From: Escherichia phage C1
Strand: one strand, 5' to 3'
Sequence record: NC_054651.1
DNA: 46,667 nucleotides
Shown here one piece after another: positions 1 to 46,667 of this stretch (the first letter of the stretch is position 1; each line of letters begins with the position of its first letter). The position numbers were made by a program, and so were the translations under genes. The notes below the pieces were generated by a model. That model saw nothing but the letters and a program-made list of their open reading frames with translations, was not told the origin of the DNA and ran no database searches.

Positions 1-181
1 TGTCATTCCACAGATGGGCGGCGTTATGCAGATGCTTGGTGGTAAACGTGATGACTCCGGTCAGCAACAAACACGCCAGCAATCAGGTCAACAACCGCAA
101 CAACAGCAGCCACCAAAACAACAAAGCCCACAAGGATGCAATGAGCCTCCGATGGACTTTGATGATTCAATACCCTTCTAA
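1..181 (+). CDS. ssb: single-stranded DNA-binding protein, C-terminal part (5' part is at 46366..46667; gene spans the window junction)
   Basis: No start codon in window; frame 2 translates to a Q/P-rich linker ending NEPPMDFDDSIPF*, the conserved acidic SSB tail; in frame with the ORF at window end. Confidence 0.85.
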   Translation, partial: VIPQMGGVMQMLGGKRDDSGQQQTRQQSGQQPQQQQPPKQQSPQGCNEPPMDFDDSIPF

Positions 182-194
182 ATGGTGATTTAGT

Positions 195-223
195 TTGACG
201 CGATACCCCTTTCTGAATATAAT
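195..223 (+). promoter_or_regulatory. sigma70-type promoter (TTGACG-17 bp-TATAAT) upstream of HNH endonuclease gene
   Basis: Consensus-like -35 and -10 hexamers with 17 bp spacer about 25 nt upstream of ATG at 250. Confidence 0.55.
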
Positions 224-249
224 TCACAAAAGCAGAAAGGGGTTAATAT

Positions 250-843
250 ATGAAATTATGTAAAAGATGCGGAATTGAAAAGGACGAAGGTTCTTTCTAT
301 AAAGGCGCAGGTATGAAGTGCAAGGATTGCACAAAGAGTGATGTTAGAGAAAATCTAAAGAATGTTGGTGATGCTTATGATAAAACAGAAAAAGGTGTAA
401 TCAGGGTTATATACAAGACGCAGAAAAGACACAATAAACTCAGAGGACATGGTGAAATTCCTTACTCAAAAGCCGAATTGTCATCATGGCTATACACCAA
501 TGGATTCAAGAGGCTTTATGATGAGTGGGTTTCCTCTGGTTATCTTAGTGACTTAAAGCCAAGCGTTGACAGGATTAATGATTTTATTGGTTATAGTTTT
601 GACAACATAAGGCTTGGAACATGGAGGATGAATAGAAATCATCAAAAGCAAGATATATTGTCTGGAGTAAACAAGAGTGGAAGAAGATGCAAGAGAGTCA
701 TAAAACTTGATTCAGATTACAATCTTATTTGTGAATATCCATCATATAATTCAGCGGCGCGCGACTGTGGTTATTCAATTGAGTATCAAATAAAAAATGG
801 CGTTAAATGCAGGAATGGATTTTTTTGGGCTTATAAATCTTAG
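250..843 (+). CDS. HNH homing endonuclease (HNH_3-like)
   Basis: 197 aa ORF; N-terminal Cys cluster (CKRCG...CKDC) and C-terminal block KPSVDRINDFIGYSFDNIRL typical of HNH_3 domain; free-standing between ssb and a terminator. Confidence 0.6.
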   Translation: MKLCKRCGIEKDEGSFYKGAGMKCKDCTKSDVRENLKNVGDAYDKTEKGVIRVIYKTQKRHNKLRGHGEIPYSKAELSSWLYTNGFKRLYDEWVSSGYLSDLKPSVDRINDFIGYSFDNIRLGTWRMNRNHQKQDILSGVNKSGRRCKRVIKLDSDYNLICEYPSYNSAARDCGYSIEYQIKNGVKCRNGFFWAYKS

Positions 844-872
844 TGCATATCTCACTTTCTGATGATAATAAT

Positions 873-897
873 AACCCCGCCGAAGCGGGGTTTATTA
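873..897 (+). terminator. rho-independent terminator
   Basis: GC hairpin CCCCGC-cgaa-GCGGGG followed by TTTATT, directly after stop of 250..843. Confidence 0.7.
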
Positions 898-1155
898 ATA
901 GCAATCAGACATCAGCTCCAGCCGCGTTTTTCCATGTGCTGCTAACCAACGGCCACTTTTAATGGTAATGCCTCCAGCGCACCCCTACGGGGGCACGCGA
1001 GGCTGATTGAGTGGAGGGATGCCCTCGCTTGAGTACATCACTTTTCAGTCTACACAGAAGCACGAACAATACTTGTGTATTGACCAGCACACGAAACTCA
1101 CTCTACTAGCCACTTCAGACCAGATAATTATTGTTTTATTGGCGGGGGATTTCAT

Positions 1156-3186
1156 TTAGTTTTGGAGTTCAACCGTTGATTTATGTACAATACCCCGGGT
1201 CGCATCCCCACCTTGTAAGATGAACTTCATAAGTGTGGCGGATGGAACCTCTAATAATCCAAGTCCCTGTGAAAGACCTCCGCCACCAACTGCATAAGCT
1301 TCACATTTATGTAAGTTAAACCCAGTAGGCGCAGCAACCCATACCACTCCATTAGCATCAAGGGCTGATACTGTCCATGTGCTTTGTTCGTAAAATCCAT
1401 TACCTACGTAGTACCATCCAGGACCAGGCTTAAGGGCATCAGCCAGGCCATTGTTACGACAGTAGTCAATAACTCTTTTGTTTGCGCGGCTTACTTTAAG
1501 ATAGTTAGTACATGCTACATTCCCACCGTTGAAAAACAATCTATTGCCTGACAATGCTGAATACAGATATTTATCTACAGACTCAAGATTGTTAAATGAA
1601 TTGGCAGATGCTGACATATTCATGCCATTTACAGTAATGTCATTACCTGTATTATTGAATGAAAAAATTGCTCTTGTTGCTGCTGGTATTGTAACTTCAG
1701 TTTGAGAATATTTGTTGGCAATTGTGTATCTTGCTGTATGTGCCCCGCTTGAGTTCATGTATGTAATGCTATAAACAAATCCAAAATTTGCAGTTATGTT
1801 TTTGTTGTTTTGGTCAGCAAGGAACAGTAACCCATTATAGAATTCAACCCCTAGTTCAAATGTGAGGTACTCACAATTGCTTCCCAGCTGTACTGCAATT
1901 GGTGTTTCGTTTGCACTATCCCAGATAGCTCCCTCGGTTGAGTTAAGAACTTCTACATAACCACGGAAAAAACCATACTGACATTTGTCAAGATAAATTG
2001 GGAATGGACATCCTCCTATCTCAACTCGCAGATCAAATGAAGTAGTTGGACCTGTAACGCCAACAGGAACTGTGTGTTCTGGTGTTGGTGATACAGGGTC
2101 AAAATAGATCCCTTTATGACAACTCAAAACACGTATAGTACCGACCATCCCCCAACATCCGTACCCATATACACCGAACTCTCCGCCCCACACGCTTACA
2201 TCGACTTTTGCTTTGATCGCATCATTCATATGAAGGCAAATTGACAGGTCACCTTTAACAGCAGACATCCATGCAACATTTGACCACTCAAGAGAAAAAC
2301 CCTGGAATACAACACCATTTACAAACCCATTTGTTGATGCTGTATCAGATGCTTTTTTTACTTTCACAATGCAGATATCGCCAATATTTGTTGATGATGT
2401 TACTGATGGTTTATCTTTAATTATCATTGTCCCATGAAAATGATCAGACTGCGGGCCTGCAATAAAGCAACTATTAATATCCAGCATCAATGTGTCGAGA
2501 GATGAGAATCTGTATTTCTTCAACGTTGGGCATCTTACTGAGCACTTTAAACTACGTGCTACTGTGTCTGCTTTTTGCATTGCGGCCCAGTCAATTGACT
2601 GAGATAAACTTGTTGCAAGCGGATACACCAATTGCGCATCAGTTAGAGTGGTGTATTTTTCTGATAATAGATGAAGAGTTCCATCTCCTATTGCTCCAAA
2701 CTGCTCTGGTGTTACATAATATAATGCCTGAGATAAATTACCAGATTGCTGAACGCCTACTCTAGTTGGGTCTACTAATGGTTCTCCGGGTGAATTTAAT
2801 TCACCCCTTAAAACTGCATCACCGACACTAACCCATGCTCCTAATTTAACACCGCCAGTACTATCTGGAGTTGAACCAGCAGGCACTATTTTAGGTAATT
2901 CACCATCCCATCGGTAATATTCTCCAGTAGCTTCATAACGCAGAGTCTGATTGGGAAGCGTCAGTGCCGCACCATCTTCGAAGCTATCCATTGTGATGTA
3001 GCCATAATTACGGATAGCCTCTTCTGCTGTGTACTGAAATCCAGCAATTGTCCAGCGGCGTACGCCGAAGCGATCAGTATAGTAATGCGCATCAGATGTC
3101 ACTACCTCATCAATCTTCCCGGCGTTAAACTTGAGGTCGCGCGGGTCTTCTGACGGAATTGGTTTATTAGTTGGTGTGGTAGCCAT
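1156..3186 (-). CDS. tailspike / tail fiber with pectate-lyase-like beta-helix domain (putative depolymerase)
   Basis: 676 aa, last gene of tail module; motif YYVTPEQFGAIGDG resembles the N-terminal signature of pectate-lyase superfamily tailspikes. Confidence 0.65.
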   Translation of the reverse strand: MATTPTNKPIPSEDPRDLKFNAGKIDEVVTSDAHYYTDRFGVRRWTIAGFQYTAEEAIRNYGYITMDSFEDGAALTLPNQTLRYEATGEYYRWDGELPKIVPAGSTPDSTGGVKLGAWVSVGDAVLRGELNSPGEPLVDPTRVGVQQSGNLSQALYYVTPEQFGAIGDGTLHLLSEKYTTLTDAQLVYPLATSLSQSIDWAAMQKADTVARSLKCSVRCPTLKKYRFSSLDTLMLDINSCFIAGPQSDHFHGTMIIKDKPSVTSSTNIGDICIVKVKKASDTASTNGFVNGVVFQGFSLEWSNVAWMSAVKGDLSICLHMNDAIKAKVDVSVWGGEFGVYGYGCWGMVGTIRVLSCHKGIYFDPVSPTPEHTVPVGVTGPTTSFDLRVEIGGCPFPIYLDKCQYGFFRGYVEVLNSTEGAIWDSANETPIAVQLGSNCEYLTFELGVEFYNGLLFLADQNNKNITANFGFVYSITYMNSSGAHTARYTIANKYSQTEVTIPAATRAIFSFNNTGNDITVNGMNMSASANSFNNLESVDKYLYSALSGNRLFFNGGNVACTNYLKVSRANKRVIDYCRNNGLADALKPGPGWYYVGNGFYEQSTWTVSALDANGVVWVAAPTGFNLHKCEAYAVGGGGLSQGLGLLEVPSATLMKFILQGGDATRGIVHKSTVELQN

Positions 3187-36775: not shown

Positions 36776-37426
36776 TCACCCTATTTCACATATCATATAA
36801 ACTTTCCTCATTAGGCCGTCAAGCAGCATTGGGTGTATAGAATCACATAACCCCTTCATTTGCTTTGCTTGCTTTATCTTTTCATTCTTCCATGCCTGAT
36901 GCGCTTCAATCACCGAACTGAAATAGCCTAAAAATACTGTACGACCATTGCCATCACCTATGTGCGCCTGATAAGCGCAAGAACACTTATTAAATGACAC
37001 ACCTATAGGCAAGTCACCTCTCGAGGCATTCCTTGCTGTCACGAAGTTGTTTAGGTGTGGAGGCACGTAAACACATGCTTCAGGTGAGTAAGTCAAATTA
37101 CCAGGAATCAATATATCCTTATCAAGGTGCCACCCTTCAACGTAATGGTTCTTCCACCACAAATTAAAGTTTGAAAACAGCAGCCACTCATTACAACAAG
37201 TAACATGCTCATAGGTTTTGTGTTGTTTTTTGTATTCATCATCAAAACACCTCCTGAGCATTTGATACCATTGGCTATATCCATAATGTTGCACCTTTTT
37301 ACCATCAACTTTCATCGCCACACCGAAGCCACAATCATTAACTCCAACACCAAATATTGGCTTTCTTTTTCCTTTCTTTATATCTCTGTTAAGCTCCATT
37401 TTTATGGAGAGATTTTTCTTTTGCAT
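36776..37426 (-). CDS. homing endonuclease with C-terminal AP2-like DNA-binding domain (putative)
   Basis: 216 aa; C-terminal block GVSFNKCSCAYQAHIGDGNGRTVFLGYFSSVIEAHQAW fits AP2 pattern; free-standing gene. Confidence 0.5.
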   Translation of the reverse strand: MQKKNLSIKMELNRDIKKGKRKPIFGVGVNDCGFGVAMKVDGKKVQHYGYSQWYQMLRRCFDDEYKKQHKTYEHVTCCNEWLLFSNFNLWWKNHYVEGWHLDKDILIPGNLTYSPEACVYVPPHLNNFVTARNASRGDLPIGVSFNKCSCAYQAHIGDGNGRTVFLGYFSSVIEAHQAWKNEKIKQAKQMKGLCDSIHPMLLDGLMRKVYMICEIG

Positions 37427-46365: not shown

Positions 46366-46667
46366 ATGGCACGCGGCGTAAACAAAGTGATTATTGTCGG
46401 CACTCTCGGTAACGACCCTGAAGTTAAATATTCAGCATCAGGCTCTGCAATTGCCAACCTTTCCGTTGCAACATCTGAGCAGTGGAAAGACAAGCAAACA
46501 GGAGAAAAGAAAGAGCAGACTGAATGGCATCGCGTTGTTATCTTTGGAAAACTCGCAGAAGTTGCAGGAGAATACCTTCGCAAAGGATCGCAGGTTTATA
46601 TAGAAGGCCAGCTTCGCACTCGTAAGTGGGCTGACAGCAACGGCGTAGACCGATATACCACTGAGAT
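46366..46667 (+). CDS. ssb: single-stranded DNA-binding protein, N-terminal part (continues at 1..181)
   Basis: [20 protein letters not shown]...[39 protein letters not shown]... nearly identical in pattern to E. coli SSB OB-fold; runs off window end. Confidence 0.9.

Follow-up and report, generated by a model that had tools for sequence, protein, structure and literature searches.

What is the DNA that separates ssb from the tailspike gene in phage S192, how did it come to lie there, and how could a gene in this position be expressed? S192 (ON239132.1) is a Jersey-like siphovirus, and the window, that is the stretch of DNA analysed here, is its whole 46,667-bp record, reverse-complemented and permuted. 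The region of interest sits where two units converge, one on the plus strand (helicase / exonuclease / recombinase / ssb) and the other, on the minus strand, bearing the tailspike gene, whose stop lies at position 1156. The initial annotation had placed an endonuclease open reading frame immediately downstream of ssb. This frame was indeed recovered, on the plus strand and with the same limits (Table 1), and its adjacency to ssb was borne out by the Pfam SSB match of the preceding coding sequence, which wraps around the ends of the window. The S192 SSB protein ends in ...MDFDDSIPF-stop, and the codons of this C-terminal tip are proposed here as the core of a homing site.

Table 1. Position, strand and basis of the features discussed in the text (window coordinates, except where residues are given).
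Feature	Position	Strand	Basis
ssb coding sequence	46366..46667, continuing 1..181 (wraps, permuted window)	+	Pfam SSB, 9.7e-39
SSB C-terminal tip codons ATA CCC TTC TAA (I-P-F-stop), proposed homing-site core	170..181	+	Alignment with insert-less alleles
Inserted cassette, ~682 bp relative to empty sites of the Akira/Segz_1 type	179..860	+	Alignment; TTCT at both junctions
Left-end motif TAAATGGTGA	179..188	+	Alignment of relatives
Sigma-70-type promoter TTGACG-17-TATAAT, 11/12 matches	195..223	+	Consensus score
11-bp hairpin ACCCCTTTCTG (205-215) / CAGAAAGGGGT (233-243), 17-nt loop with the -10 box	205..243	+	Folding, z -2.7
Endonuclease open reading frame, ATG start, 197 aa	250..843	+	ORF list, translation
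Cys4 site C4, C7, C24, C27	N-terminus of endonuclease	+	Alignment
Helical region of endonuclease	After the N-terminal Cys4 site	+	Structural anatomy
Beta-beta-alpha-metal core, D107, R108, Y115, N119, N128	Residues ~104-138, nt 559-663	+	Profile and AF2 model
Putative C-terminal beta-beta-alpha-alpha-beta DNA-binding domain	Residues ~147-197, nt 688-840	+	Model
Empty-site homology resumes, TTCTGATGATAA	857-868		Alignment
Resident bidirectional terminator hairpin AACCCCGC-CGAA-GCGGGGTT, G+C-rich	873..892		Alignment with empty sites
Second endonuclease-like open reading frame, 216 aa	36776..37426	-	PHROG 953 'HNH endonuclease', 2e-73

Comparison with related phages lacking the insert, which the initial annotation had called for, indicated that empty sites are the rule. 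Among 136 phage records containing the ssb 3' end, 134 were without the cassette; insert sequence beyond position 188 was present only in S192 and in Salmonella phage PSH-1 (2/136), which were also the only records of this set to encode a close copy of the protein. Empty sites were seen in Bas78, Akira, Segz_1, 6947 and Seszw_1. In the last four of these, TGATGATAAAAATAACCCCGCCGAAGCGGGGTTTT directly follows the ssb stop codon, and the same sequence makes up positions 861-895 of S192; the insert-less junction of the Segz_1/Akira type reads ...GATTCAATACCCTTCTGATGATAAAAATAACCCC.... Homology with the insert-less alleles stops inside the ssb stop codon itself, which is TAA in S192 and TGA in the Akira/Segz_1 type, and the presence of TTCT at both junctions leaves the boundaries of the cassette ambiguous by 4 nt. 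The gene is thus not conserved in all relatives and empty-site alleles exist, which gives good support to the earlier view of a free-standing mobile endonuclease gene inserted beside ssb.

PSH-1 has a Segz_1-like backbone into which this cassette is inserted at the corresponding position. The cassettes of the two phages are 97-100% identical, against ~89% for the backbone and 67-79% for the body of ssb, and the two copies of the gene differ by 11 synonymous and 4 non-synonymous codons. On the basis of this near-identical cassette in phages with ~70%-identical ssb, of its absence from almost all the records and of the shared junction, we consider it probable that positions 179-860 form a self-contained, free-standing homing-endonuclease cassette, which invaded S192 exactly at the ssb stop codon.

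Several details of the junctions deserve mention. Bas78-80 lack the gene, yet the ten leftmost bases of the cassette, TAAATGGTGA, still follow their stop codon; this remnant may be the footprint of a loss, or of recombination inside the left end of the cassette. The tip codons are identical in insert-bearing PSH-1 and in insert-less Segz_1. Since they do not change between filled and empty alleles, immunity of the carrier, if the tip is the target, would have to come from the altered downstream half of the site or from something else. On the left side, S192 and PSH-1 pass from ~75% to 95% identity around window position 100; a co-conversion tract was nevertheless discarded as evidence, as the last 80 nt of ssb are ~88-93% conserved in all relatives. 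A duplicated tip at the right junction was likewise not retained as a general feature, being convincing only in locus L015 and arguable in S192 and PSH-1.

The gene had also been credited with a terminator of its own. The hairpin in question is real, but it is the ancestral ssb terminator: together with its left flank TGATGATAAnAATAACCCCGCCGAAGCGGGGTTT, it is found directly 3' of the ssb stop codon in Akira, Segz_1, 6947 and Seszw_1. Its presence, unchanged, in insert-less relatives therefore makes it the resident terminator between ssb and the tailspike gene, displaced by the insertion, and not a component of the cassette.

A second lineage offers an independent view of the same event. Vibrio breoganii phage 1.116.O encodes a homologue 58% identical to the S192 protein, while its relatives 1.133.O and 1.226.O are without it. 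In the filled allele of 1.116.O, the cassette begins right after ...GAA ATA CCC TTC TAA of the upstream gene and takes the place of a 26-nt terminator spacer, and the stop codon of the endonuclease gene directly adjoins the ribosome-binding site of the gene that follows. This homologue is preceded by an ERF recombinase and by a tip-bearing protein. The left junction is thus the same in S192 and in the Vibrio lineage, which are quite different phages. The gene was found in 4 V. breoganii phage records, and insert-less alleles were common among the 34 V. breoganii-host records matching the region. More widely, the endonuclease family occurs in unrelated phages and is common in rV5-like phages. 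A search of bacterial genomes yielded 4 matches in 185,579 species, all on MAG contigs of ~20-45 kb whose viral origin is not shown. No member of the family was found in 5,426 E. coli genomes and no real match in plasmids, where a single 137-kb E. coli 'plasmid' record resembles the rV5-like phage matches (size, 48% match).

The first signs of a link with the SSB tip were the homologues of Vibrio phage 1.116.O and of the rV5-like 241Ecol014PP, both located just after ...D-x-x-I-P-F-stop codons. Among relatives of at least 47% identity with assessable upstream sequence, a tip-ending gene was indeed located just upstream in 19/19 viral and 36/37 metagenomic loci. In all 19 viral loci, I/V-P-F codons lie 8-110 nt upstream of the start codon; the tip is directly followed by a stop in 12 of them, by 1-4 extra codons in three and by an extension of ~16 codons in two, while L010 and L013 (2/19) contain only an orphan IPF fragment, without any long open reading frame attached. 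Of the metagenomic loci, which were scanned independently, 29 display a strict acidic [IV]PF and seven have an acidic tail of this type that ends in LPF, IQF or ILF; the remaining one of the 37 has too little upstream sequence. The pattern was found in only 4/30 loci of relatives below 47% identity. Ten upstream proteins were tested: six matched Pfam SSB, one matched DUF736 and three had no match, including the 408-aa rV5-type protein. Several of them are mutually non-homologous, and the acidic tip is the sole feature that they have in common. Such a distribution and the orphan fragments agree with recognition of the tip DNA by the enzyme and with co-transfer of donor flanks, and less well with a functional operon partnership. 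Beyond the tip, AATGG follows the stop codon in ~19/33 loci (TA(A/G)AATGG, related to the left-end motif), and stop codon plus AATGG forms a weak palindrome with the P-F codons, a slight hint that the enzyme may, like PacI, be a homodimer acting on a short palindrome. In the literature, of which coverage was incomplete, we found no link described between any endonuclease family and the bacterial-type SSB tip.

The identity of the protein itself had to be revised. GenBank annotates the product as 'endonuclease VII', and PHROG 1035, which bears the same name, matches the S192 protein at 1e-16; for PHROG 1035, this name is only a label. Identity with T4 endonuclease VII was rejected, neither Endonuclease_7 (PF02945) nor a resolvase structure having been recovered. 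The designation HNH_3-like, given in the initial annotation, could not be upheld either: the S192 protein matched no Pfam model at E<=10 and no NCBIfam model at E<=1, and an invariant D-R pair replaces the D-H dyad of HNH_3 (PF13392), with Arg at the position of the catalytic His. Pfam and NCBIfam provided no model for four homologues scanned as well, while a PF27269 tag is precomputed on a few database homologues. A search of a large protein database yielded 195 relatives, with identities of 53-70%. When 31 of these were aligned, C24, C27, Y17, D107, Y115, N119 and N128 were invariant, and C4, C7 and R108 nearly so; the four Cys, D107, R108, Y115, N119 and N128 were also conserved in 33 proteins from the fetched loci, down to ~28% identity. 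The motif PSVDRIDDFKGYSFDNIRLGTW..N resembles an HNH motif, yet Arg replaces the general-base His.

The sequence profile points to PacI, and the structural model to I-HmuI and PacI. A profile of 31 homologues had PacI as its only match among PDB sequences (E 1e-3), over an alignment which spans the N-terminal CxxC...CxxC and the 'vDRxDxxxGYSxxNxRL...NR' region (GVDRSDSFEGYSPQNARL...CNR), and in which D107/R108/Y115/N128 face D92/R93/Y100/N113 of PacI (PacI numbering counted from the alignment). The AF2 model of the S192 endonuclease reached a pLDDT of 90, and its only significant Foldseek matches were I-HmuI (9e-4, top) and PacI (2e-3). An exhaustive profile search gathered 10,903 clusters (50% identity) at E<=1e-3, of which 522 at E<=1e-30. 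Long homologues, with N-terminal extensions of ~100 aa, were not SSB fusions. According to alignment and model, the S192 protein is a member of a large and essentially viral family, with a predicted PacI-type catalytic centre and a predicted modular layout like that of I-HmuI, the C-terminal part being a putative I-HmuI/NUMOD1-like DNA-binding domain. PacI is an exception among His-Me finger enzymes: it is without the His, an omega-loop Tyr being positioned for its role, and its single metal ion is bound by Asp and Asn (PMC5714182, PMC4081073). In the S192 protein, Asp107 and Asn128 are accordingly the predicted metal ligands, Arg108 would stand at the HNH His position and Tyr115 in the omega-loop. 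As the catalytic His is absent, we infer nuclease activity by analogy with PacI.

This likeness has limits. R.PacI (PDB 3LDY/3M7K; His-Me finger group 20, Jablonska et al. 2017) is ~20% identical to the S192 protein, which shares with it, as predicted from sequence, the Asp/Asn ligands, the omega-loop Tyr and the N-terminal Cys4 site. R.PacI has, however, a second Cys4 site: S192 T124 and M127 align with PacI C109 and C112, and the family is without conserved Cys there. It is moreover a bacterial restriction enzyme of 142 aa, acting as a homodimer on TTAATTAA and without a C-terminal DNA-binding domain, whereas the S192 protein has a putative extra NUMOD1-like domain of ~50 aa and is encoded by a mobile phage cassette. 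Like I-HmuI (PDB 1U3E) and other free-standing or intron-encoded HNH_3-type homing endonucleases of phages, it is phage-borne and sporadic, and its model suggests a comparable modular layout, in which a putative DNA-binding module lies C-terminal to a small beta-beta-alpha-metal nuclease; it differs from them by the lack of a Pfam HNH_3 match, by Arg and Tyr in place of the catalytic His and by the N-terminal position of its putative zinc ribbon. Another precedent is that of the PacI-like HNH endonucleases of lactococcal Skunavirus, described in the accessible part of the report as rare, variably present, free-standing and presumed homing, a classification based on HHpred only, the one PacI-like enzyme having been included in an exclusion assay (PMC12724721). 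That part of the report describes neither an ssb-tip association nor a regulatory hairpin (PMC12724721).

We then consider how the gene may be expressed. The near-consensus promoter TTGACG-17-TATAAT of the initial annotation was confirmed, at 195..223. Promoter-like sites in positions 1..1400 were not above chance (3, versus 3.1 in shuffles), so that the weight of this one comes from its score and from the recurrence of the TTGACG-17-TATAyT layout in homologous cassettes, with TTGACG-17-TATATT in Vibrio phage 1.116.O and TTTGACG in L074, L076, L097 and L155. The predicted transcription start, near A230, falls within the loop of the hairpin that surrounds the -10 box. The 5' arm of this hairpin (within 203-217, ATACCCCTTTCTGAA) resembles the tip codons, and the Shine-Dalgarno sequence, AAAGGGG (236-242), lies in the 3' arm at a distance of 7 nt from the ATG. 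In the Vibrio homologue the hairpin is arranged in the same way, but its stem differs: TTCCCTTCTAG / CTAGGAGGGAA (z -5.4). The earlier account of the insert was right in its mobile reading and had missed the site at the stop codon, the tie with the SSB tip and the location of the promoter inside a hairpin occluding the ribosome-binding site.

Predicted pairing over the Shine-Dalgarno region was more frequent than expected across the loci. The probability of its pairing with upstream sequence had a median of 0.67, versus 0.42 at 111 control open reading frame starts (p = 4e-5), and uninterrupted stems of at least 11 bp over the Shine-Dalgarno zone were present in 18/39 distinct loci, with 1.25 expected from dinucleotide shuffles. 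Stem sequences vary between loci; the -10 box is at the 5' end of the loop in several, and within the loop in S192, L009, L021, L022, L024 and L025. Roughly half of the loci have only a weak hairpin or none, and in rV5-like phages the gene lies 8 nt behind the tip, without promoter or hairpin. A MAFFT alignment of nine promoter-hairpin regions brought the -35 box, the tip-like motif and the -10 box into register and misaligned the 3' arms, owing to loops of unequal length; stem statistics were therefore computed locus by locus in place of covariation. Rfam had no match at gathering score within positions 1-1400.

From these elements, a cycle of invasion and controlled expression can be proposed. 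During a mixed infection, the enzyme would cut the allele that has no insert, in or close to the codons for the SSB tip and its stop, and recombinational repair from the insert-bearing genome would copy the cassette in; as the insertion parts the tip from its former downstream sequence, the carrier would be protected. The endonuclease gene would be transcribed from its own sigma-70 promoter, with the -10 box in the loop of the 11-bp hairpin. Transcripts starting in the loop would be without the 5' arm and could be translated, while read-through mRNA from the highly expressed ssb would have both arms and keep the Shine-Dalgarno sequence hidden. Transcription of the endonuclease gene would end at the resident ssb terminator. 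A control of this kind has been described for I-TevI, I-TevII, I-TevIII and segB of T4 and for mobE of Aeh1, where the read-through mRNA is silent and starts inside the hairpin are translated (PMC2988022). S192 differs from these T4-type systems by a sigma-70 consensus instead of a T4 late promoter and by a 5' arm resembling the proposed target, and its control is predicted only. T4 also provides a precedent for the location: segG, of the GIY-YIG type, lies beside gene 32 and cuts gene 32 of T2 (PMC2988022), and is thus a free-standing endonuclease gene adjoining the phage SSB gene that it targets, as is proposed here for the S192 gene. By contrast with S192, however, segG has a different nuclease fold, gp32 is without the bacterial-type tip and the segG cassette is without its own promoter.

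The resemblance between hairpin arm and tip is not restricted to S192. In 23/34 loci, with 0.9 expected, the stretch from the tip to the start codon contains a tip-like motif, CCn(n)TTy(y)Tr, and this second motif adjoins either the -10 box or the Shine-Dalgarno sequence. The excess may come in part from the complementarity of P-F codons (CCnTTy) to the Shine-Dalgarno sequence; the motif could otherwise be a relic of donor tips, or an operator mimicking the target. We tentatively suggest, as a possibility that we hold with some doubt, that a PacI-type subfamily has specialised on DNA encoding the near-universal acidic SSB tip (D-D-x-I-P-F-stop), and that the inverted tip-like copies around the -10 box serve both as the arm hiding the ribosome-binding site and as an autorepression operator.

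Other explanations have to be weighed against homing. The gene could encode an accessory protein of the recombination/replication module, a nuclease or DNA-binding factor that has been domesticated and works with SSB, recruited for example by its acidic tip. Many SSB partners do bind the SSB tip, and the position of the gene at the end of the helicase / exonuclease / recombinase / ssb module, that of the Vibrio homologue after a recombinase and a tip-bearing protein, and the frequency of the gene in rV5-like phages are in line with this. Its rarity among Jersey-like relatives, the abundance of insert-less V. breoganii phages, its own promoter, its sharp boundaries at the stop codon and a cassette identity far above that of the backbone nevertheless make it unlikely, all the more so as the orphan IPF-stop fragments of L010 and L013 have no intact upstream frame. 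The protein could also be a nuclease-dead HNH relic, which has become a sequence-specific DNA-binding protein and possibly a repressor acting on the tip-like repeats that bracket the -10 box. The replacement of the canonical His by Arg, the excess of tip-like CCnTTyTr copies in the promoter/5'-UTR spacer and the hairpin arms, which make an inverted repeat around the -10 box, can be read in this sense, and I-TevI reportedly represses its own gene. We find this quite improbable, however: PacI is active with the same Asp-Arg...Tyr...Asn arrangement; 33 divergent proteins all retain the metal ligands and the Tyr, which would not be expected of a dead site; the sporadic and site-specific distribution requires a mechanism of mobility; and G-U pairs in several stems favour an RNA structure over a symmetric DNA operator.

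The tip being the only feature common to the upstream genes, the enzyme could alternatively be mainly a weapon, directed at the ssb 3' ends of rival phages, of plasmids or of the host chromosome so as to exclude competitors or to shut off the host, while its gene would spread as a by-product. Bacterial and plasmid SSBs also bear the acidic tip, the host ssb ending in D-D-D-I-P-F-stop. Marker exclusion by phage endonucleases offers a documented precedent (PMC2988022, PMC12724721). In the genomes and plasmids searched, the family has, however, not entered bacterial ssb loci or plasmids, and such a role would be compatible with homing rather than exclusive of it; as an explanation in its own right, it appears quite unlikely. 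Finally, insertion could have proceeded by a tyrosine-mediated, hairpin-guided process resembling transposition, of the IS200/IS605 type, taking place 3' of the tip and independent of double-strand-break repair. The proposed catalytic residue is indeed a Tyr, the analogy with HUH enzymes was noted by Jablonska et al., the stop codon forms the centre of a partial palindrome at the left junction, and a sub-terminal hairpin is present. The protein nonetheless does not resemble HUH/Y1 transposases, the right ends of the cassettes showed no conserved structure, and the spacer of the Vibrio recipient was replaced and not merely interrupted, which fits gene conversion; we regard such a process as extremely improbable. 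Homing by double-strand-break repair, with the tip DNA at or near the cut, is thus the reading that we prefer.

The S192 genome contains another gene of this kind. The initial annotation had pointed to a second putative endonuclease, and an endonuclease-like open reading frame was confirmed there by its PHROG match (Table 1), its product having no Pfam match. The gene is present in only 10/126 related records, the others showing a clean gap of ~825 bp, so that it also looks like a sporadic insert.

Taken alone, the gene next to ssb is an ordinary kind of selfish element, free-standing homing endonucleases being common in phages; what makes it a variant of modest interest is the link of its whole subfamily with the SSB tip, along with an active site of the PacI type, based on tyrosine. 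The present analysis corrects the 'endonuclease VII' annotation of GenBank and PHROG, and defines a viral family of ~10,900 clusters as PacI-type enzymes in which tyrosine substitutes for histidine. Its position behind the SSB-tip codons offers a concrete and cheap hypothesis for the recognition site. It also illustrates how a selfish element may home in on a short peptide-coding motif that is frozen by its function, instead of on a single gene family. If true, such a specialisation would allow the same selfish element to move among unrelated phages, and even among genes with nothing in common but this tail. In Jersey-like phages, the junction between ssb and the tailspike gene is a place of exchange of the tailspike (host-range) module, and an endonuclease breaking DNA at this junction could promote such exchange.

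The stretch that follows the resident ssb/tailspike terminator was wholly unlike between S192 and PSH-1, the only other one among 136 related phage records carrying the endonuclease cassette inserted at the ssb stop codon, and therefore moves with the tailspike module, not with the cassette. In S192 it was 91.5% identical to the DNA that flanks orf212, the tailspike gene of Cba120, on its 3' side. The post-terminator DNA includes a conserved element (see the table below) matched at 92-94% identity by the terminal-repeat regions of podophages of Pectobacterium and Dickeya; about 70 Salmonella phage records were also matched, a count that applies to the whole search query and not to this element alone. 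The element folded better on the tailspike strand (dG -36.6, z -3.3) than on the other, and Rfam gave zero families at the gathering score.

At the other end of the cassette, its first 10 nt, TAAATGGTGA, were retained 3' of the ssb stop codon in the insert-less phages Bas78, Bas79 and Bas80, with a different terminator after them. These nucleotides may be the footprint of cassette loss, or of a tailspike-module exchange inside the left end of the cassette.

Coordinates of the features in the S192 window and in homologous loci
Feature	Location	Strand or context	Basis
Endonuclease-like gene	window 36776-37426	minus strand	PHROG 953 HNH, 2e-73
Conserved element, ~65 nt	window 974-1040	best fold on tailspike (minus) strand	sequence match and folding
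Tailspike-module flank	window 865-946 and 894-1156	3' of terminator	comparison with Cba120 and PSH-1
46-aa ORF (putative)	window 1019-1159	overlaps mosaic DNA and conserved element 974-1040	annotation
Cassette left-end sequence	L002 (phage Bas78) 3184-3200		sequence comparison
I-P-F extension loci	L011 (rV5) 2446-2502; L023 1932-1988
Orphan tip locus	L013 (Pseudoalteromonas phage PH357) 2103 and 2433-2444

The initial annotation had proposed a second endonuclease with an AP2-like domain. Its endonuclease-like character was borne out by PHROG 953, and its distribution was sporadic (10 of 126 related phage records, the remainder showing a clean gap of ~825 bp). No Pfam or NCBIfam model matched the product, and the AP2-like domain found no support in any model.

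The acidic SSB tip varied upstream of the endonuclease homologues. In rV5 and L023, the I-P-F codons lacked the stop and ran into similar extensions of ~16 residues (A-P-V-G-L-Q-Y-G-K-S-R-I-H-A-L in one, A-Y-I-G-L-S-E-G-K-Q-Y-I-H-V-I in the other), which reached or overlapped the endonuclease start. In PH357, the upstream protein (333 aa) ended in an acidic tail without I-P-F, PPIDFDDDNL-stop; an orphan LLIPF-stop fragment lay 330 nt beyond its end, immediately 5' of the endonuclease gene, consistent with a donor flank brought into a new site.

Three further loci (L021, L024 and L025) shared a small conserved hairpin, GTAGCACCTATnCCnAAGCTAC, ~60-95 nt 5' of the endonuclease start, between the promoter/hairpin region and a tip bearing 1-4 extra codons. 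In locus L119 (~100-184), a consensus promoter, TTGACA-17-TATAAT, overlay a real tip. Its -35 box is formed by tip codons (cTT GAC Ata), which hints that promoter and target sequence are able to share nucleotides in these cassettes.
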